A stretch of 64,000 bases of DNA. Source: a virus. The stretch is from positions 3,004 through 67,003 of the IMG/VR virus record IMGVR_UViG_3300032164_000009. One strand, written 5' to 3'. Shown piece by piece: positions 2,927 to 52,162 of the stretch. The translations under genes and the position numbers were made by a program. Positions within the stretch are counted from its first letter, which is position 1. Every line of letters starts with the position of its first letter. Under the pieces are notes generated by a model. It saw only the letters and a program-made list of their open reading frames with translations, was not told the DNA's origin and made no database searches.

Positions 2927-3101
2927 GGTCGATCCCTCCTCCACCTGCCACCCTACCCCCTGCCCCGCTCCGCCGTCAAGGGCCCGCCACGTCGCCGCTG
3001 ACGGCCGTTTCGCCGGACCTCCGATCATACCACCCTGCCCGCGCCGTGCCCGCCACGGGCCTCCTGGTGCGTCGGTTTCGGGGGGAGGGCAGAAAAACCG
3101 C

Positions 3102-3130: not shown

Positions 3131-3136
3131 TACTGC

Positions 3137-3373
3137 ATGGGAAGCAAAGCCCCCCCTATTAGCGATTGGTTCACGCCGACCGAAGCGGCCGAACGGCTCG
3201 GCATTTCCCGCCCGCGGGTATGGCAGCTCATTAAGGCCGGCCGGCTCCCGTGCGCCCGGGCATGGGGGGCTGCCCTGATCCCCCGTGCCGCCATAGAGCA
3301 ATTCCAGCGGCGATCTACGGGCCGCCCACGCTCCGAGTCCCCTAACGGCAGGGGGAAATCAAGTTCGCCGTAA
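3137..3373 (+). CDS. Helix-turn-helix (excisionase/HTH_17-like) DNA-binding protein
   Basis: WFTPTEAAERLGISRPRVWQLIKAGRLP motif. Confidence 0.8.
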   Translation: MGSKAPPISDWFTPTEAAERLGISRPRVWQLIKAGRLPCARAWGAALIPRAAIEQFQRRSTGRPRSESPNGRGKSSSP

Positions 3374-41169: not shown

Positions 41170-43275
41170 CTGAGCGACCAGCACGAATATGACCGGGAAC
41201 GCTCGCGCCGGAGACAGCAGGAATCGTCAACAAGCGGTCGAGATATCGGCCCCACGCCCCCGATTGCCGATGTTCGCCGTCGCAACCGATGCCGGCGGCT
41301 GGCCGTTTTCTGCACGACCTACAACCCGGTGGCGTTCTATTGGCATTGGAGCAATGAGCATCGCCGGGTGATTGCGGCTATCGAGCGGAGCGTCAAGGAG
41401 GGTTTGATTTTGGCGTTTGCGATGCCTAGGGGAAGCGGGAAAACGGCGATCTGCCGAATGGCGGTATTGTGGGCCGCGTCGTGGGGCCTGAGTTACTACG
41501 TCTACCTGATCGGTGCGAATGAACCGGCCGCCTTAAAAAACCTCGAAGCCGTCAAGGGCTGGATGCGAGCCCTCCATCCCTACGTCGATGACTTTCCAGA
41601 GATTTCTTGTGCGGTGGTGAAGCTCGGCAAGATCGCGCAGCGCGCCGCTGGCCAGCTTCAGAACGGCCAGCCGACCGACATTGTTTGGGAGACGAACCGA
41701 ATCGTCCTGCCCCGTGTCCAGGCCCCGCCCAATCTTCCAAAATGCGATCAGCGACCCGATGGAATGGCCGCGAGTTCGCAGGTAGTTATTGCCGTATCTG
41801 GTCTCACCGGGGAGGGCATCCGCGGCAGTTTATTTGCCGATTCGATTACAGGGGCCCTGCGGCGGCCAGACCTTATCCTGCTCGACGATCCGCAGACCGA
41901 TGAGTCGGCTAAATCGCTCCAACAGAATGCGGACCGCGAAGAGTTGATTGCGGGAGCCGTGCTCGGATTGGCTAATCCTGATAGACCGTCGGCCGTGGTG
42001 ATGCCTTGCACGGTCATTCGGCGAGGCGATATGGTTGATCGGATTCTCGATCGAAAGCGCAACCCGACGTGGCGTGGAATCCGGACGGCTTTTTTCAAGT
42101 CCATGCCTACCGACAAGGCAGCGTGGGAAGCGTATGAAGCCGAGTACCGGGAGGCCCTGGGACAGGACGTACCGGATCGGGCCCGGCTGAACCGCTACTA
42201 CCGAGAGCATCGGGCGGAACTGGATAAGGGGGCCGAAGTCTCATGGATTCAGCGCAAGACGTGGGAAGTGTCGGGGGTTCAGCATGGGATGCACCTCTTT
42301 TTTCAGAAGCGCTCGACATTTTTTGCGGAGTACCAGAACGATCCGCAAGAAGAGCGGAGCCCCCATTCCGTTTTGACGGCTGCTATCGTAATGAGTAAGG
42401 CGGCTGGATTGCCGTGCGGTACTATGCCACTCAATTGCGAGCACGTCGCGGCTTATTGTGACGTTCACGGGCGAGTACTCTACTGGCTGGTATCGGCGTG
42501 GTCGCAAAATTTTGGCGGTGGAGTGATCGACTACGGCACCTGGCCGCGACAGAACCGTGCATACTTTTCCCAGGAGTCGGCCCCGGTCGTCTTGGAAGAC
42601 ATCTATCCCGGTTTAGTCGATGATGCCCGAATCACGGCTGGCCTTCAGGCCGTGGCAGACGTATTGCTGGCGCGAAAGTTCACTCGTGAAGATGGGGCGG
42701 AATTCAAGATTGGAAAACTTTTGTTTGATGCCAAGTGGGGCGAGAAAAATGCCCTGGTCAAAGCATTCTGTCGGCGGCACCCCGCCTATCCGGAAATAGT
42801 TTTCCCCGCGCAGGGCTTAGGGATTGGGGCAAGCTCGAAGCCTTTCAATGAATACCGGCCGGAGCATGGGGCACGGATTGGCGAGCATTGGCGTATCCCG
42901 CCAGCAGTGAAGGGCGACCGTTGGGTGACCATTGACACGAATTGGTGGAAGAGTATCGCCGCGAGCCGGTTAGCGATGGCCATCGGCACGCCCGGCGGCT
43001 GGCAACTGTTCGGGCGAGACCCGCAAGAACACGAACTATTCGCGGACCATTGCATCGCTGAGGAGCCTGTCGAAACTACGGCAAAGGGCCGGACTGTTGA
43101 CGAATGGAAGTGGAAACCGGGGCGGCCGGACAATCATTGGTGGGACTGTTTAGTGGGGTCTGCGGTGGCTGGGTCGATGCTTGGCGTGCCGATGGCCGGG
43201 GGGAAGGTACGGAAGGCCATAGCCGATCCGATGCAGCGACCTTCGGCGGCGGACGTGGCGAGAGGGGGAAAGTGA
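41170..43275 (+). CDS. Terminase large subunit (GpA-like); probable CTG start at 41170
   Basis: MPRGSGKT (Walker A); RPDLILLDDPQT; EYQN.P; DNHWWDC; frame open upstream of the called start 41329, giving SGRDIGP.PP.AD..RR. Confidence 0.85.
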   Translation: MSDQHEYDRERSRRRQQESSTSGRDIGPTPPIADVRRRNRCRRLAVFCTTYNPVAFYWHWSNEHRRVIAAIERSVKEGLILAFAMPRGSGKTAICRMAVLWAASWGLSYYVYLIGANEPAALKNLEAVKGWMRALHPYVDDFPEISCAVVKLGKIAQRAAGQLQNGQPTDIVWETNRIVLPRVQAPPNLPKCDQRPDGMAASSQVVIAVSGLTGEGIRGSLFADSITGALRRPDLILLDDPQTDESAKSLQQNADREELIAGAVLGLANPDRPSAVVMPCTVIRRGDMVDRILDRKRNPTWRGIRTAFFKSMPTDKAAWEAYEAEYREALGQDVPDRARLNRYYREHRAELDKGAEVSWIQRKTWEVSGVQHGMHLFFQKRSTFFAEYQNDPQEERSPHSVLTAAIVMSKAAGLPCGTMPLNCEHVAAYCDVHGRVLYWLVSAWSQNFGGGVIDYGTWPRQNRAYFSQESAPVVLEDIYPGLVDDARITAGLQAVADVLLARKFTREDGAEFKIGKLLFDAKWGEKNALVKAFCRRHPAYPEIVFPAQGLGIGASSKPFNEYRPEHGARIGEHWRIPPAVKGDRWVTIDTNWWKSIAASRLAMAIGTPGGWQLFGRDPQEHELFADHCIAEEPVETTAKGRTVDEWKWKPGRPDNHWWDCLVGSAVAGSMLGVPMAGGKVRKAIADPMQRPSAADVARGGK

Positions 43276-44927: not shown

Positions 44928-45106
44928 AGTGTGAAATTTGCGGCGGGCGGTGTGTCCTTGATGCCCACACGGCGGATTGTACGGCGTGTGGTCAGCACTA
45001 TGAGCAGCCGGGATCATTTGTCTATCGGATTGTCCTGACCAATGAGCAGCGGGCCTTGCTCCAAAAGGCAGCGCGGCCGAGCGAAGCAAAGGAGATCAAG
45101 ACATGA
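44924..45106 (+). CDS. Small zinc-ribbon protein
   Basis: CEICGG..CTACG. Confidence 0.5.
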   Translation: MKCEICGGRCVLDAHTADCTACGQHYEQPGSFVYRIVLTNEQRALLQKAARPSEAKEIKT

Positions 45107-45564
45107 CAGACGGGCGAGAACCGGAGACTCCGATTGATCCAATAGAGAAGGCTTTCTTCAGGTGTATCAACTGCGGTCTTGAACGGTCCACGATTGAAGA
45201 GTTCACATATAGGTGGGACAGTACGCTTGGCACCCGGGATTGCCGAGAGCGTTTGGCCCAGGATGACGTGGGCGAATATCGTCCTTCGCCGTGCGGAGCG
45301 GAACCGGCTCATGTGATACTACTAGACGATTCCAATCCTTCTCGGTACTTAGTCGCCTTCATCGACTACCGACCCTTCACCATCAATACAGATGCGCTTG
45401 CAGTCAAGGGACTGCCAGAAATCGGTGCTAGTCGGAAGTCGGGAGGCGGAGTTGAACTGCTCAGTCTCCGTGCGCCTATACTCATTTCCCGCCAGATGTC
45501 TGAAGTAAGGTGCTATTGGGAAAGCATAACAAGGAGCGCAACAAATTGTGCCCTGGGTAGGTGA
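45103..45564 (+). CDS. Hypothetical protein
   Basis: AAGGAG RBS; ATGA coupling. Confidence 0.4.
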   Translation: MTDGREPETPIDPIEKAFFRCINCGLERSTIEEFTYRWDSTLGTRDCRERLAQDDVGEYRPSPCGAEPAHVILLDDSNPSRYLVAFIDYRPFTINTDALAVKGLPEIGASRKSGGGVELLSLRAPILISRQMSEVRCYWESITRSATNCALGR

Positions 45565-45652
45565 CTACGTGAATGATGCCGTCGCGGTTGGTTTTGCCGG
45601 GGCGGATCGAGGCGGTGTGTGAAGTGTTTCTAACCTAAAGGAGTGCAGTCTA

Positions 45653-46303
45653 ATGATGTACGAAGCGAAGTTTTCCCTGACCGGCGACATGCCCCTCATT
45701 ATGCACCAGGACGATGTTGAGGCGTCCGATACCTTAATGGCCTGGCGCAAGGCCCCCGAGAACAAAAACCTGAGCGTGGCTGGCGATGATCGCAGCCCGC
45801 CCTGGACGTGGCAGACCTACCTCTATTCGGACGGAGAGAACGTCACGATCCCCGCCCAAAATCTTATGGTTGCCATCCGGCAGGCCGGCACTCAGATTAT
45901 CCTGAAGAAACAGAAGACCTACAAGGAGATCAGCCAGAGTGGGTTGTTGATTCCGACTGAGTATCTGGACTTCAGCACGGCCGGGCGGAAGGTCGAGATT
46001 GGCGAGATTGAGGCGGTGCGAGATTTGCCGTTTCAAGAGCAATCGGAGGCGGCCCGCAAACTCGGCTTTCGACTATTCATCAAGCGCGCCGTCATCGGCA
46101 AGGCCAAGCACGTTCGGGTCCGGCCCCGCTTCGATGTGTGGGAACTGGCTGGCACGATTCGCGTTTTGGTCCCTGAGATCACTTGGGACGTGCTTGGCAA
46201 GTTGTTTGAACTGGCCGGGCGGGTCGGGCTTTGCGACTGGCGGCCGGGGTGTAAGACGCCGGGGCCCTACGGGATGTTCACGGCGAAAGTGACAAAATGC
46301 TAG
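45653..46303 (+). CDS. Stand-alone RAMP/Cas7-like RNA-binding protein (effector candidate of the GGY-NN array)
   Basis: N-terminal beta strand LTG..PLIMH; IPAQNL...IR.A; R.RPRF..W; C-terminal Gly-rich loop GRVGLCDWRPG...GPYGMF; AAAGGAG RBS; no other cas genes nearby. Confidence 0.75.
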   Translation: MMYEAKFSLTGDMPLIMHQDDVEASDTLMAWRKAPENKNLSVAGDDRSPPWTWQTYLYSDGENVTIPAQNLMVAIRQAGTQIILKKQKTYKEISQSGLLIPTEYLDFSTAGRKVEIGEIEAVRDLPFQEQSEAARKLGFRLFIKRAVIGKAKHVRVRPRFDVWELAGTIRVLVPEITWDVLGKLFELAGRVGLCDWRPGCKTPGPYGMFTAKVTKC

Positions 46304-47024
46304 GGTTCGGCATTGTTGGGTCAGGTACGGCCCGGTATGGCTCGGTAGAGCAAGGTCCGGTCTGGCAAGGCTGGGCACGGCCCGGCAGAGCGTGGTGAGG
46401 TAAGGTTCGGCGTGGCAAGGGCGCAGAGCGCAGGGAATAGGGAGAATTAAACCAATCTCGGCTCGGTAGGGCAAGGCGTGGCGTTGTCAGGCAAGGCATG
46501 GTCGGGCTTGGTAGTGTGCGGCCGGGTCCGGCGCGGTCCGGTCGGGCGCGGCAAGGCGAGGGCGCAGAGCACACGGAACGAGAAACGAAATAAGTTATGT
46601 ACGGTGCGGTTCGGTCCGGCGTGGTCTGGCAGAGCACGGTGCGGTGCGGCCGGGTGGGGTTCGGCACGGCAGAGCCTGGTGAGGTCCGGCAAGCCTCGGC
46701 TGAGCTAGGCATGGCCGGGCCAGGCAAGGCAAGGGCACAGAGTGCAAGGAGCGGAGAAAACGAAACAACTATGGTTCGGTACGGTTCGGCCTGGCTGGCC
46801 TCGGCATGGCATGGTGGGGTCCGGTTCGGTAGGGTCCGGCTTGGCAGAGCAAGGCGCGGCACGGCACGGCAAGGCGGGGCGAGGGTGCAGAGCACACGGA
46901 ACGAGAAACCAAATAAGCTAAGGTCGGGCAGGGCTTGGTCCGGCTTGGTCCGGCAAGGTTAGGCATGGCATGGTCGAGCGCGGTGCGGCGCGGCAGAGCA
47001 TGGTTTGGCGAGGGTACTGAGTAC
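46304..47024 (+). ncRNA. Array of five GGY-NN pentamer guide units, each ending in a small hairpin, joined by A-rich linkers
   Basis: Tracts 46304-46418 (23 pentamers), 46460-46559 (20), 46598-46732 (27), 46773-46882 (22), 46922-47011 (18). Confidence 0.85.
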
Positions 47025-47053
47025 AAAACTTTAACCAGTGCAGAGGAGTGAAA

Positions 47054-47548
47054 ATGTTCAAGTCAGATTCGGAAAGCAGAGCGGCGGGCGAGCGACTTTG
47101 GCGGACGTTCGGCGACAAGTCGCGGGGCGAGACGATCACTTGGTCGAACCTTGAGGCGGTCATGGGCCGGACCCGGATTGAACCGGGCGGTTGGCATATC
47201 ATCCGGCGTTTTCGTAAGCGGCTTCTCCGAGAGCGCCGGATTGTCACGCTTCCGGCCGATACCGTGGGCTTGCGCTTGTTGACTCACCAGGAGACAGCCC
47301 GAGAGGTGCCGGCGTTGCGACAACGGCGGGCATATCGACAGATCAACCGATGCCTAAAGGAAACCGCAACCGTCGATGGAACCGGCTTGACGGATCACGA
47401 GCGGAAGGTACTGGCGGTGCAACGGCACAATCTCGCCTTTCAGCGGCTTCAGATCGGGCGGTCGCGCCGGCAGTTGGTGCAGGGGACGAAGAAAACCGAG
47501 GTCAATCCGTTACGGAAAGAGAAGGCCGCCGAATTAGTGGGAGCATAA
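47054..47548 (+). CDS. Basic accessory protein embedded in the guide array (winged-helix-like)
   Basis: GAGGAG RBS; Arg-rich; lies between guide units 5 and 6. Confidence 0.65.
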   Translation: MFKSDSESRAAGERLWRTFGDKSRGETITWSNLEAVMGRTRIEPGGWHIIRRFRKRLLRERRIVTLPADTVGLRLLTHQETAREVPALRQRRAYRQINRCLKETATVDGTGLTDHERKVLAVQRHNLAFQRLQIGRSRRQLVQGTKKTEVNPLRKEKAAELVGA

Positions 47549-47557
47549 CTGCGATTG

Positions 47558-47660
47558 GGCTGGGCAAGGCTAGGCGCGGCAGGGCCCGGCTTGGCAGAGC
47601 GTGGCAGGGTTCGGCGGGGCCGGGTGCGGTTCGGCTACGCATGGCAAGGGGACTGAGTCC
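47558..47660 (+). ncRNA. Sixth GGY-NN guide unit
   Basis: 18 pentamers followed by GG-GGAC-TGA-GTCC hairpin. Confidence 0.8.
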
Positions 47661-47741
47661 ATGGTGACTTGATATTGAAAACAATCTGACCAGCAACACA
47701 CCTGGGGTCCGCGAGCCCTGGGACCGTGGGGCGTAACGGAG

Positions 47742-47776
47742 CGGCGCGTCGGAGCCGACACCGACGCGCCGTTTTT
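47742..47776 (+). terminator. Terminator-like hairpin with U-tract
   Basis: CGGCGCGTCGG/CCGACGCGCCG stem plus TTTTT. Confidence 0.6.
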
Positions 47777-47810
47777 GTTGCGCCTGCTGGTCGGTCTTGA
47801 GAAACGAAAC

Positions 47811-48059
47811 ATGAAACCCGAAGACCGCCCATCGGCGAGCGAAGTGGCAGGCCCGGCTCAGCGGGGCATCCGCTGCCCGGAGTGCCATGCCGCCGGGGAG
47901 TGGTCCGTCAATTACGGTCGCCACATTCCAGGGGGCTATCGGCGGGTACGGGTTTGCCGCAAGTGCGGCCACCGAACAGTCACGCTTGAGCGGCTCGCGG
48001 GGGATCGGTCCACCGGTGGAACTTCCCCGCCGGTAAGCGGTGATTCGGCATTGGAATGA
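47811..48059 (+). CDS. Zinc-ribbon protein (NrdR N-terminal/Ogr-like)
   Basis: GIRCPEC...RRVRVCRKCGHRTVT.E. Confidence 0.65.
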   Translation: MKPEDRPSASEVAGPAQRGIRCPECHAAGEWSVNYGRHIPGGYRRVRVCRKCGHRTVTLERLAGDRSTGGTSPPVSGDSALE

Positions 48060-48143
48060 CCGGAGAGTAGCCCTATCCTGAAATAGACAACCCAACCGGG
48101 CGACGCTCCGGGCCGATCCCCCAGAGCGAACCTAGCGCAGCAC

Positions 48144-48182
48144 AAGGCTGTATGGAGCCATACCTCCATGCGGCCTTTTTTG
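48144..48182 (+). terminator. Terminator-like hairpin upstream of the head genes
   Basis: AAGGCTGTATGGAG/CTCCATGCGGCCTT stem plus T-run. Confidence 0.6.
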
Positions 48183-48218
48183 TTGCGCTCGCCCGAGTTG
48201 TGGCTGTCGGGAGCAGCC

Positions 48219-48416
48219 ATGGCAGATGACCTCTCCGACCTGATTGAAACCGCCGTCGAGGCCCCGCAGTCCGTGACTGTGGCCGGCGGCAGCGTTGCAT
48301 CTCGCCCCCTCCCCGAGTTGATCGAGGCGGATAAGTATCTGGCTGCCAAGCGGGCCCGCACCAAGAACCACTGCGGCCTCATCTTCCGCACCCTTGAACC
48401 CGGAGGTTGCGGGTGA
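48219..48416 (+). CDS. Head-tail joining protein (gpW-like)
   Basis: Small gene directly before the portal; P.SVTV.G.SV...L.ELIEADKYL. Confidence 0.7.
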   Translation: MADDLSDLIETAVEAPQSVTVAGGSVASRPLPELIEADKYLAAKRARTKNHCGLIFRTLEPGGCG

Positions 48417-49945
48417 ACCTGTTTGGTCGAATTCGCCGTGCATTCTCCCGGGCCCCGGCAGTCCGTCCCTCGCCTGAGATAGGCCGCCCCGTTCGCGGAC
48501 GCTATGACGCCGCGGGCTATGGGACCGAGACCAAGAATATCTGGCTCAACGCGGACGCCCTCGATGCTGACGCCGCGAATTCTCTGGCCGTGCGAAAGAA
48601 CCTTCGCCAGCGCTCACGATACGAGCGGACCAACAACGGGCACGCATCGGGGATTGTCGGGACGCAGGCAAACTACGTCATCGGAACCGGGCCGAAGTTG
48701 CGGATGCAGACCGGTTCAACCGGGTTCAATCGGATGATTGAGGCGAGGTGGGGCAGTTGGTGTGCGGCCACCCACTTCATGCGGAAACTCCGCACTCTCA
48801 ATAAGGCCAAGACCGGCGACGGCGAAGCGTTTGGTCATTTTCGCACCAACCCTGGTCTAGCCGATCCGGTGAAGTTGGATCTCCGCACCTTGGAGTGCGA
48901 CCAGATTACGGCACCGGCGTTGACCGCGATCAACGATGAAAACTACATCGACGGTATCCGCTTCGATGAATGGGGCAACGTCATCAGTTATGAGGTGCTC
49001 GACTGCCATCCTGGGGCCCTCTGGTCTTGGATCGGGGCCCGCGACGGATACCAGACGATCCCCGCCAAGTTCATGGCCCATTGGTTCAACGAAGATCGCA
49101 GCGGGCAGCATCGCGGGGTTCCTGAGATCACGCCGACTCTGAATTTGTTCGGCACGGGTCGGCGATACCGCGAAGCGGTTGTTGCGGCGGCTGAGACGGC
49201 GGCCGACTTCTCGGCGATTGTCAACATGGGCTCGCCGGATGATACCGGCCCTGATCAACTCCGACCATTCAGTACCTTTCCAATCGACAAGCGGACGTTG
49301 ATGGTCAGTCCGGCCGGATCGACCACCACTCAACTCAAGCCCGAGCAGCCGGCGACTAGCTACGTTGACTTCACACGCTCGATGCTTTGCGAAGAGGCCC
49401 GACCGCTGAACATGCCGTACAACATCGCGGCGTGCGATTCCAGCGACTACAGCTTCAGCGGCGGGCGGCTGGATCACCTGACCTATTACGTGAGCGTGGG
49501 CGTCGAGCGACAAGATTGCGAAACCCTCGTCTTGGAGAAAGCCTTCGCGCTCTGGTTTGCCGAGGCAATTCTCCGCTACGGCTGGACAGTTCCGGCCGAA
49601 CCCGCCCCCCGGCACTCATGGGGCTGGCCGGCAATGCCGCAGATCGACCAGGAAAAGACGGCGAACGCTCGCAAGACCTCTATGGGCCTGGGCATTCAAT
49701 CTCCCAGCCGCGTTGGCGACGAAGACGGCTACGACGATGAGGACGAGTTGGAAGTGCTGGCCACGGATCATGGCGTAACCGTCGAGGAGATGCGGGAGAT
49801 TCGCCGCGAGTCGATCTTCGCCCAGTCCGCGGCCCCTCCGGTCAAGACGAATACCGACGGAGATCAACCCGCCTCAGACAAGAGCCTGCCGCCGTCCAAG
49901 GTCGCACCCAAACGCAATGGTGCCACACGAGGAGCGTTCGTATGA
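48413..49945 (+). CDS. Portal protein, lambda family
   Basis: YDAA; LR.RSRYE..NN; DGEAF; IDGI.FDEWG; GQHRGVP; D.SDYSFSGGRLD. Confidence 0.9.
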   Translation: MNLFGRIRRAFSRAPAVRPSPEIGRPVRGRYDAAGYGTETKNIWLNADALDADAANSLAVRKNLRQRSRYERTNNGHASGIVGTQANYVIGTGPKLRMQTGSTGFNRMIEARWGSWCAATHFMRKLRTLNKAKTGDGEAFGHFRTNPGLADPVKLDLRTLECDQITAPALTAINDENYIDGIRFDEWGNVISYEVLDCHPGALWSWIGARDGYQTIPAKFMAHWFNEDRSGQHRGVPEITPTLNLFGTGRRYREAVVAAAETAADFSAIVNMGSPDDTGPDQLRPFSTFPIDKRTLMVSPAGSTTTQLKPEQPATSYVDFTRSMLCEEARPLNMPYNIAACDSSDYSFSGGRLDHLTYYVSVGVERQDCETLVLEKAFALWFAEAILRYGWTVPAEPAPRHSWGWPAMPQIDQEKTANARKTSMGLGIQSPSRVGDEDGYDDEDELEVLATDHGVTVEEMREIRRESIFAQSAAPPVKTNTDGDQPASDKSLPPSKVAPKRNGATRGAFV

Positions 49946-52101
49946 AAAAGCACGCGGCACGCCACGTCAAGGCCCGCATGATTCGAGCCGCCCAAAAATG
50001 CGGAATGATCCAGGCCGAAGCCGTCGCCGTCGAGTGGATTCAAGCCGCCGAAGGCGAATCCGCCGACAAGCCGATTCGCTTCACCATGACGGCCTACACC
50101 GGCGGGCCGATGCGAGTGGACGGTTACTACGATCCGGTCGTTATCGATCTGGAAGGTCTGGAAGCCAAGCCGCCTTTCCCGAGTCTTCGTGACCATGACA
50201 TGGGGCAGATCGTCGGGCACATCGACGAGGCCGAGATCGGGTCGGTGGTCAAGGTTGGCGGCATCATCTCCGGGGCCAATGAATTCGCCGCTCAGGTTGT
50301 GAGCAGTTCCAAAGCCGGCTTCCCCTGGAAAGCCTCGATCGGCGCGATGCCCGCCGCGAACGGGTTGGAGTTCATCGGCGACGGTATCAGTACGAAAGTC
50401 AATGGCAAGTCGTTTAAGGGACCGCTCATCATCGCCCGCAAGGCCACGGTGCGTGAAGTCTCATTTGTGGCGATTGGTGCAGACGCCAAAACCTCAGTCA
50501 AAGTTGCGGCGTCCGCCGCGAATTCCAAGGAGATCGAAAACATGAAACCCGAACTGCAAACGTACATCGAGGCGATGGGACTGGTCGTGAGCGAACTTCG
50601 CGACGACACGATCGCCAAGATCAAGACCAAGTACGATGCCGACCTGAAGGCCGCAACGGAGGCCGCCGCAATCAAGGCGAAGGCCACGGAAAAGCCGCCG
50701 GAGGCGGTCAAGGTCGAACCCCCGGCGTTCGATCTGCGATCGACGATCCTCTGCTACGAGAAGCACGTCGCCATCATCCAGGCCAAGGCCGCCGAGTATG
50801 CCGGCAAGATCGACGCCGCCGCGCTGGCTCCGGTCATGGCCAAGGCCCAACAGGACGCGGCGCAGTTGAAACTCCAGGCGCTCAAGGAAGAGTGGTCGCC
50901 GGTCAAACTCGAAGCGGCTTACGTCATGCCCGCGGCGATCTTCGCTGCGGACCTGATGGGCCTGGAGCGACCCAAGGGTCCGGCCATTCACGGGAGTCCG
51001 CGGGACTTGCAACCGCAGGTTATCGAGGCGGCCTTTGCTCAGTCCTGCGGACTCAAGCAACCCGAAAAGCATTACAAGCCGGAGATTCTCGAAGCGGCTG
51101 ACAAGCACTTCCGCAACATCGGCATCCAAGAGGTGCTCCTGATCCACGCCCAGGCCGCCGGCTATGCAGGCCGCCAGAAGATCACCGTCGGCAATCTCCG
51201 CGAGGTTATGAATGCCGCCTTTTCGACACACACCCTCACCACGCTGCTGACGACTACGGGCAACAAGATTCTGCTCGAAGGGTTCAACCAGATCCCGCAG
51301 TCATGGCGGGAGATTGCCGAGATCGGAAACGTCGTGGATTTCAAGACCGTGACGCGCTTCCGCCTGACGGCCGACATGCAATACGAAGAGGTTGGCGCGG
51401 CTGGCGAACTCAAGCACGGCACGGTCGGCCAAGAGACCTACACGATGGCCGCGAAGACCTACGGCAAGATGGCGGCCTTCACTCGCCAAGACATTATCAA
51501 CGATGACTTGGGTGCGCTGAACGCGGTCCGAAGCCGTCTTGGTCTCGGCGGTGCGATCAAGTTGCAGAATGTCTTCTGGACGGTCTGGATCGATAACACC
51601 GCCTTCTTTACTGGAGCCCGGGCGAATCTCGTTACGGGAAGCACCCTGGGCGACACGGGACTCGCAACCGCCATCGCAGCCTTCCGCAACATGGCGGGAC
51701 CGGATGGGAACAAGTTGAACCTGGAGCCGGCCGTCTTGCTCGTTCCGCCTTCCTTGGAAGCCACGGCCCGGAAGTTCTACGTCAGCCAGGAACTCCGCGA
51801 CACGAGCGCAAGCACGCGACTGGCGACGGCGAACATCTACTACAACCGCTTCCGCCCGGTCGTGGTGCCTGAGTTGGAAACAGCGTCCTTCGGCGGTGCC
51901 TACAGCGCCTCGACCTGGTATCTGCTCGCCGCTCCGACGGTTCTTGCGACCGCCGTGATGTGCTTCCTCGACGGCCAACAGGCTCCGACGATCGAGAGCA
52001 GTGACGCGGACTTCGATACGCTCGGAATCCAGTTCCGGGCGTATCACGACTTCGGGGCGGCGTTCTCCGAGTATCGTGCCGGCGTCAAGGCGACGGCATG
52101 A
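49942..52101 (+). CDS. Prohead protease-scaffold-major capsid fusion protein
   Basis: AYTGG...DH...GFPWKASIG...EVSFV protease domain; DFK, GELKHG, KTYG, IINDDLGA and YHDFG capsid motifs. Confidence 0.9.
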   Translation: MKKHAARHVKARMIRAAQKCGMIQAEAVAVEWIQAAEGESADKPIRFTMTAYTGGPMRVDGYYDPVVIDLEGLEAKPPFPSLRDHDMGQIVGHIDEAEIGSVVKVGGIISGANEFAAQVVSSSKAGFPWKASIGAMPAANGLEFIGDGISTKVNGKSFKGPLIIARKATVREVSFVAIGADAKTSVKVAASAANSKEIENMKPELQTYIEAMGLVVSELRDDTIAKIKTKYDADLKAATEAAAIKAKATEKPPEAVKVEPPAFDLRSTILCYEKHVAIIQAKAAEYAGKIDAAALAPVMAKAQQDAAQLKLQALKEEWSPVKLEAAYVMPAAIFAADLMGLERPKGPAIHGSPRDLQPQVIEAAFAQSCGLKQPEKHYKPEILEAADKHFRNIGIQEVLLIHAQAAGYAGRQKITVGNLREVMNAAFSTHTLTTLLTTTGNKILLEGFNQIPQSWREIAEIGNVVDFKTVTRFRLTADMQYEEVGAAGELKHGTVGQETYTMAAKTYGKMAAFTRQDIINDDLGALNAVRSRLGLGGAIKLQNVFWTVWIDNTAFFTGARANLVTGSTLGDTGLATAIAAFRNMAGPDGNKLNLEPAVLLVPPSLEATARKFYVSQELRDTSASTRLATANIYYNRFRPVVVPELETASFGGAYSASTWYLLAAPTVLATAVMCFLDGQQAPTIESSDADFDTLGIQFRAYHDFGAAFSEYRAGVKATA

Positions 52102-52162
52102 CCATAGGCGGGCCAGATGCCCGAAACATTACCCGCAACTAGTTTTTTGAGGAGACTTGAAA

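Follow-up and report, generated by a model that had tools for sequence, protein, structure and literature searches.

In the present study we analysed a 64,000-nucleotide stretch of viral DNA (IMG/VR record IMGVR_UViG_3300032164_000009, positions 3,004 to 67,003; the whole stretch is called the window below) and found a locus that is very likely a phage-borne VIPR system, probably directed at the capsid gene of rival phages. VIPR, a DNA silencer that is guided by RNA and related to CRISPR, was first reported in 2026 (bioRxiv 10.64898/2026.04.26.720920;.720927; 10.64898/2026.10.15.759431). Since it is already in print, the architecture itself is not new. What is new here is that the code of guides 1-4 reads as the capsid gene of related rival phages. 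The locus as such almost certainly belongs to the VIPR family, and capsid genes of rivals are, judged from the sequence matches, probably the targets of these guides.

Three parts make up a VIPR system: the minimal RAMP protein Vipr, the accessory gene vap and the vrRNAs, which in the studied clades carry 9-16 GGY-NN repeats and a structured 3′ tail; the carriers are mostly phages and the outcome is transcriptional silencing of competing elements (bioRxiv 10.64898/2026.04.26.720920). Repeats and protomers stand in a 1:1 ratio, each protomer gripping one GGY (bioRxiv 10.64898/2026.04.26.720927). The NN bases pair with double-stranded DNA and the third target base is skipped each time (1-nt-skip; bioRxiv 10.64898/2026.04.26.720920;.720927). 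The published survey covers 667 systems of seven types, for which its main text names vap classes as the sole criteria; some types have a winged-helix Vap, and the NN match threshold used is 80% (bioRxiv 10.64898/2026.04.26.720920).

The vipr gene and its guide tracts

The first-pass annotation of this DNA, made from the letters alone, had proposed a RAMP-type gene for a 216-aa protein followed, from the first base after its stop codon, by a strictly 5-nt periodic array. Both were recovered as described. The open reading frame contains the motifs GLCDWRPG (the Gly-rich loop, residues 192-199) and GPYGMF (residues 204-209), and the first tract starts at 46304, directly past the vipr stop codon. 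A phase-aware scan of the window detected six 5-nt tracts, all on the + strand at this locus, and no other tract on either strand. The six tracts and 112 GGY-NN units of the earlier count were confirmed (68 GGC, 44 GGT), but the total is 127 units and not 128. The 15 remaining units read AGC (9), TGT (3), GCC (2) and CGC (1). All 16 dinucleotides are used at the NN positions, in line with the claim that these vary freely. About 40 nt lie between the end of a tract and the next one. The whole 67,003-base genome holds no further tract with at least five GGY in phase, and 20 base-shuffled genomes gave none with at least six.

Among 1,203 candidate proteins, 899 relatives of the Vipr protein were found at E<=1e-3, with 462 cluster representatives. 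A profile of 67 homologues, compared with 177,635 PDB sequences, yielded 36pp_D, the 'SUSP1 Vipr protein', as its sole match (E 4.7e-15). This match was weaker with less input (E 3.9e-8 with a 27-sequence profile, 0.088 with the single sequence). Cryo-electron microscopy of SUSP1 Vipr assigned the contacts to G1, G2 and Y3 to residues H17, R138, D177, W178 and R179 (bioRxiv 10.64898/2026.04.26.720927). HMMER alignments place H18, R157, D195, W196 and R197 of the present protein at these positions, and all five are invariant across 27 close homologues. R157, the thumb-equivalent, lies within a predicted beta-hairpin (strands 140-148 and 151-160).

The AlphaFold model of the protein reached a predicted local distance difference test score (pLDDT) of 96.5 and a predicted template modelling score of 0.90. 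In a Foldseek search it gave 59 matches at E<=1e-3, the best being subunits of CRISPR effector complexes (type VII, Csm and Cmr; E 4e-6 to 6e-4). All matches listed were CRISPR effector-complex entries, including 6ifn_E, the Cas7 query of the VIPR paper, and 6nbt_A (Csm3), at template modelling scores of about 0.5 and identities of 8-16%. The Foldseek library extended to 2026-04-08 and included no Vipr structure. The protein also matches phrog_4652, a family of unknown function (E 2.5e-10), and belongs to no Pfam family; tblastn searches with Vipr and with the terminase against GenBank phages returned nothing at strict thresholds. The protein is homologous to SUSP1 Vipr by sequence, and a minimal RAMP (Cas7-like) fold is predicted for it. 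The solo RAMP/Cas7-like gene of the first-pass annotation, as well as its suggestion that phage systems named VIPR have a similar architecture, which might therefore not be new, were borne out by the 36pp_D match and the preprints.

A check set beforehand was whether homologues stand beside GGYNN tracts in other genomes. Of the 76 homologue loci, 72 came from viral contigs and 4 from genomes; in 75 of them tracts run near vipr on the same strand, and opposite-strand tracts were seen in none. The sole locus without a GGYNN tract within 4 kb is L058 (4001-4786), where the match is also longer (786 nt against the usual ~640 nt). Five distant homologues (L035, L046, L052, L060 and L061) are followed downstream of vipr by short tracts exactly 8 nt apart, without a 40-nt tail, which are perhaps the 'staggered' arrays of the VIPR paper.

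Each of the six tracts closes much as the earlier reading had described, with a last unit GGCAA or GGCGA, then GGG, then a hairpin of 4 bp whose loop reads AGA or TGA (6/6; the hairpin of unit 2 with a C.A mismatch). In the 25 closest loci GGG follows directly after 74 of 120 tracts. An alignment of 65 distinct tails, with 6 tails of other loop lengths omitted from both class counts, revealed covariation, within the window as well as across loci, in two classes. In the class of the window, which comprises 19 sequences with 4 bp and an NGA loop, pairing holds in 98.7% of cells, with 12 double changes. A sister class of 40 sequences with 5 bp is paired throughout (100%), with 42 double changes; in neither case did any of 500 shuffles reach these values, and slid registers of the pairing drop to 4-60%. 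Contigs of four other sediment metagenome runs were compared with the window; in runs X3-X5, short contigs match the tail of vrRNA4 (46849-46931) and bear different GGYNN strings on the 5′ side. This would fit constant tails joined to variable guides, although the fragments are short and were placed at 85% likeness.

The irregular units show a pattern of their own. Seven of the nine AGC units are preceded by NN = AG (GGCAG-AGCNN; in one case GGTAG), which forms the string GCAGAGC also seen in the tail hairpins of units 1, 2 and 4. AG/AGC is the commonest irregular pair over 379 tracts (16 cases, 7 of them in this window). These pairs may be tolerated degeneracy or may serve as a mark, either of internal processing or of capping.

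Matches of the guides to capsid genes

For the search of targets the published rule was applied, in which every GGY stands for one free base. In the own 67-kb genome and the 76 vipr loci no guide matched above shuffles, neither at full length nor in 10-unit windows. One candidate, an 18/20 match in L030/L066, was rejected, with only 2/20 agreeing outside it.

An exact seed of vrRNA1 (units 11-18) found 13 loci in viral contigs. Six of these are related to each other and extend to 18-21 of 30 matches outside the seed, against 3-11 in the other seven. Units 11-21 are perfect in the six related loci; in L101 the run covers units 10-21, 12 in a row. The site is the antisense of the codons ...DFSTLGVQFRGF... 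at the 3′ end of the protease-capsid gene of a distantly related phage lineage, where the NN bases fall on codon positions 1-2. Over five whole rival contigs the best vrRNA1 match is 34-37/46, with the maximum of 37/46 in L101/L125. vrRNA4, which had no part in retrieving these loci (the vrRNA1 seed alone was used), matches the same gene at 32-34/44, at a distance of 60 nt from the site of vrRNA1. Shuffled guides reached a maximum of 27 over the same five contigs, and skips of 0, 2 or 3 bases gave nothing beyond chance. The rival protease-capsid gene is 35% identical to the one in the window and the adjacent portal 40%. In the five rival contigs, which are 23-44% complete, no Vipr homologue was seen.

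A second set of 42 capsid loci was picked by protein homology alone (8 from viral contigs, 34 from genomes). Thirty of the 34 genome loci came from 401 sampled genomes that share a phylum with a metagenome-assembled genome titled Planctomycetaceae; 51 of the 401 carry this protease-capsid type, with up to 80% identity to the rival. In one Victivallales chromosome the protease-capsid fusion occurs three times. The capsid-fusion loci of the genomes (L160-L193, from G006, G007 and 30 others) are presumably prophages.

Within the 42 loci the best match fell on a single homologous antisense site in 36 loci for vrRNA1, 19 for vrRNA2, 31 for vrRNA3 and 35 for vrRNA4, against 2 for vrRNA5 and 7 for vrRNA6. 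When the five seeded contigs are included, the numbers for vrRNA1 to vrRNA6 over the resulting 47 loci are 41, 19, 36, 40, 2 and 9, and 100 shuffled guides gave at most 10-15 (10-13 for guides 1-4). NN lies on codon positions 1-2, with the wobble base skipped, in every locus at the modal site. The best matches in the homology-only set were 72% for vrRNA1, 70% (28/40) for vrRNA2, 65% (34/52) for vrRNA3 and 75% for vrRNA4. Guides 4, 1 and 3 tile the last ~53 capsid codons, vrRNA3 covering the last 26, and the site of guide 2 lies ~190 codons upstream (footprint from codon -193).

The further exact-seed scans, seven in total with that of vrRNA1 (six in viral contigs, one in metagenomes), added no target. 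The seed of vrRNA5 (units 2-11) had 0 matches in viral contigs. The matches of the other seeds there were discarded, as agreement outside the seed stayed at chance level: 28 matches for vrRNA2 (units 2-9; 1-9/24 outside), 4 for vrRNA3 (units 16-23; 7-13/36), 11 for vrRNA4 (units 7-14; 5-11/28) and 12 for vrRNA6 (units 1-8; 1-8/20). In metagenomes, units 2-10 of vrRNA5 hit at least 120 loci, of which 117 scored 1-5/18 and 3 lay at contig edges.

Proposed mechanism and alternative explanations

By homology with SUSP1, Vipr protomers would bind one 5-nt unit each, hold the GGY and expose the two variable bases. This corresponds to the non-contiguous guide that the first-pass annotation had imagined, and homology and conserved contacts support it; one protomer per unit is shown for SUSP1 and would apply here by analogy. 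The tracts would be transcribed and processed into vrRNAs, and the assembled filament would read double-stranded DNA with every third base skipped and block transcription. Guides 1-4 would aim at the major capsid gene in related phages and prophages, whose hosts are apparently Planctomycetota, and the likely function is the silencing of a competitor's capsid gene within a shared host cell. As the skipped base falls on the wobble position, one guide could cover many diverged rivals. The own capsid gene differs at several codons and is matched much less well.

Several observations weigh against this. Among natural matches, vrRNA1 reaches 80% at best and vrRNA4 77%, which is level with the threshold of the paper or slightly under it; vrRNA2 attains 70% and vrRNA3 65%, and a perfect target was found for no guide in the scans made. 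For vrRNA5 and vrRNA6 no target above the null was detected in the own genome, the vipr loci, the rival contigs, the capsid loci or the seed scans. The tracts have 18-26 units against the published 9-16, and 15 of their 127 units depart from GGY. The case for the tail hairpin comes from covariation: with 4 bp it is short, it differs from the pseudoknot of the SUSP1 clade, and it does not exceed shuffles in stability (z -0.9 to +1.5). The vap gene was assigned by position and weak fold hints, and the proposed host phylum follows from prophage-like capsid genes carried by genomes that share a phylum with one metagenome-assembled genome.

The same matches might be explained by a VIPR system that controls its own capsid gene, for instance in the timing of late expression, and the best self-matches of vrRNA1, vrRNA3 and vrRNA4 do all fall in the 3′ end of this gene. 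However, with 28/46 (61%), 29/52 (56%) and 29/44 (66%), respectively, they are no better than those of average homologues (medians 30, 30 and 28 over the 42 loci), and for vrRNA1 and vrRNA4 they are clearly below the rival lineage (37/46 and 34/44). No self-targeting at 80% or more is reported for the published sets (bioRxiv 10.64898/2026.04.26.720920). We regard own-gene control as most unlikely. That the real targets of a VIPR system lie elsewhere, in host genes, satellites or regulators, and that composition and protein conservation produce the capsid matches, is very unlikely as well. The lack of a capsid match for vrRNA5 and vrRNA6 and of any perfect target speaks for it, as does the scope of the search, which comprised seven exact-seed scans, the one in metagenomes listing at least 120 loci. 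Yet shuffled guides of the same composition scored at most 27-28 where 34-37 were observed, and their convergence on a single site extended to no more than 10-13 of 47 loci, where vrRNA1, vrRNA3 and vrRNA4 show 36-41. Moreover, vrRNA4 matched the rival in loci fetched by the vrRNA1 seed only, and the frame is always wobble-aligned.

A more basic objection would be that the tracts are not guide RNAs at all, but a repeat protein (such as the 205-aa - strand open reading frame 46278..46895), a G-rich satellite, or else a signal for packaging or replication. Long open frames do run through the tracts in either direction. Codon constraint, though, sits poorly with a period of 5 nt in which three bases are fixed and two are free. 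In 75 of 76 loci the tracts keep to the strand of vipr; they are closed by a covarying hairpin and spell capsid codons in the 1-nt-skip register only, which leaves this explanation extremely improbable. Returning to a VIPR system directed at rival capsid genes, we lean slightly towards a broader view, in which VIPR of this clade would be a capsid-directed weapon: several long guides of 18-26 units, with AGC-type units tolerated, would tile the conserved capsid 3′ end, the wobble skip would give family-wide coverage of diverged rival (pro)phages and the carrier would escape via a few non-synonymous codon differences.

Locus organisation and related systems

The genome has 67,003 bases and direct terminal repeats and was rated by CheckV at completeness 100, so we consider it a complete phage genome. 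The locus is flanked by the terminase (41329-43275), the portal (48407-49945) and the protease-capsid fusion (49942-52101). On the + strand vipr is followed by five vrRNAs, the vap candidate, the sixth vrRNA and then a terminator-like hairpin (Table 1). The fold of 47700-47785, which includes this hairpin, has -55.6 kcal/mol (z -5.1) and none of 200 shuffles was as stable; a simple terminator scanner did not call it, and a simple promoter scan of 45000-48000 gave no sigma-70-like site. Rfam, hammerhead ribozymes included, had nothing at E<=1 in 45000-48200, and PADLOC had no match. Open reading frames of up to 205 aa cross the arrays on both strands, and gene callers probably would annotate these as hypothetical proteins. 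Between the VIPR locus and the portal lies a gene for a 94-aa zinc-ribbon protein (47775-48059, +) with similarity to the NrdR-like N-terminal ribbon (E 4e-5, under the Pfam cut-off).

Table 1. Features of the VIPR locus and its capsid counterpart in the window (GGY, number of GGY-NN units; vrRNA ends are putative)
Feature	Position	Strand	Basis
vipr, 216-aa minimal RAMP (Cas7-like) protein, fold predicted	45653..46303 (stop included)	+	PDB-sequence profile, AlphaFold, Foldseek, phrog_4652
vrRNA1, 23 units (46304-46418; GGY 20) and tail with GCGC/AGA/GCGC hairpin	46304..46459	+	tract scan; tail covariation; capsid match
vrRNA2, 20 units (46460-46559; GGY 18) and tail, hairpin with one C.A mismatch	46460..46602	+	tract scan; capsid site convergence
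vrRNA3, 26 units (46603-46732; GGY 22) and tail	46603..46772	+	tract scan; capsid site convergence
vrRNA4, 22 units (46773-46882; GGY 20) and tail	46773..46921	+	tract scan; rival capsid match
vrRNA5, 18 units (46922-47011; GGY 16) and tail reaching into the ribosome-binding site of the next gene	46922..47047	+	tract scan
vap candidate, 164-aa accessory protein	47054..47548	+	ATG 47054 after GGAG; longest open reading frame from GTG 47048
vrRNA6, 18 units (47558-47647; GGY 16) and tail with GGAC/TGA/GTCC hairpin	47558..47670	+	tract scan
Strong hairpin and U-run, terminator-like; probable end of the vipr-vrRNA-vap-vrRNA unit	47729..47785	+	folding
Own capsid gene, homologous counterpart of the vrRNA4, 1 and 3 sites in the rival; context, not target	51946..52104	-	self-match scan

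The vap candidate matches phrog_5926 (E 4.5e-5) and has neither a Pfam family nor a PDB sequence match. In 14 of 76 loci tblastn located a relative of it on the vipr strand, downstream of that gene. The model of the vap candidate (pLDDT 88.7) consists of a helix-strand-helix-helix-strand-strand unit and then two long helices that form a hairpin. Foldseek gave 0 matches at E<=1e-3 with this model, the weak ones being mostly winged-helix regulators, and in a wider fold search the matches were taken up by the helical hairpin, with no clear relative. From the model, a winged-helix Vap is plausible.

Comparison with the VIPR of SUSP1 and the Pseudomonas fulva prophage (type II; PDB 36pp) revealed a small single-RRM RAMP protein with conserved GGY contacts on a phage in each case, discrete GGY-NN vrRNAs with an own 3′ tail each around a small accessory gene, and natural matches that follow the 1-nt-skip with the skipped base at the wobble position. 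The present Vipr shares ~25% identity or less with its relatives in cultured phages. Besides the guide length mentioned above and a GGG-capped hairpin tail in place of the pseudoknot, the predicted capsid targets set the locus apart. The target classes published in the main texts are a satellite recombinase, lysis-lysogeny regulators of prophages and other vipr genes (bioRxiv 10.64898/2026.04.26.720920; 10.64898/2026.10.15.759431). The word 'capsid' occurs 0 times in the main text of bioRxiv 10.64898/2026.04.26.720920, and among 12 of 17 passages of bioRxiv 10.64898/2026.10.15.759431 in other contexts only.

Two cultured phages carry comparable loci. In Pseudomonas phage vB_Pae_LESphi2 (OQ594955.1, L088 2084-3573), P21_9, annotated as hypothetical, matches the Vipr profile with an hhalign probability of 99.4% (E 4e-21). 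Three same-strand GGYNN tracts each close with GGCAA/GGCGA-GGG-hairpin, and a 163-aa gene lies directly downstream. Here, unlike in the window, the tracts stand upstream of P21_9 and the G-loop reads DYRP instead of DWRP. The 163-aa protein has no clear similarity to the Vap candidate (BLASTP none; hhalign probability 11%). LESphi2 is a cultured P. aeruginosa LES prophage, and its Vipr-homologue locus adjoins cI/cro. In Gordonia phage Trine (MH271318.1, L089 2498-3299), gp41 is a weak full-length relative of Vipr with 25.6% identity (E 1e-3). The coding sequence annotated there as gp40 encloses a perfect tract of 12 GGYNN units (3131-3190), so gp40 may be a mis-called open reading frame.

The backbone of class 1 CRISPR-Cas complexes (Csm3, Cmr4, type VII Cas7) is similar in the predicted fold, the Gly-rich loop and the beta-hairpin 140-160 with R157. 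In contrast to Cas7 systems, no repeat-spacer array, Cas1, Cas2 or other cas gene was found. The complete genome gave no Pfam match to Cas1 (PF01867) or Cas2 (PF09827), for which control genomes matched, and Rfam reported no CRISPR repeat family in the window; on this point, too, the first-pass annotation agrees with our results. A further difference is the guide period, which is 5 nt with three bases sequestered in VIPR and 6 nt with one flipped base in Cas7 systems.

Natural VIPR targets are known for few clades only, and here four of six guides have a readable and testable target class. The VIPR concept is unchanged by the locus, which supplies concrete guide-target pairs, longer guides and a simpler tail. 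It extends inter-phage conflict to an environmental (sediment) phage group far from the studied phages of Escherichia and Pseudomonas. If the capsid reading is true, late structural genes, and not regulators or recombinases, would be the preferred VIPR target in some phage groups.

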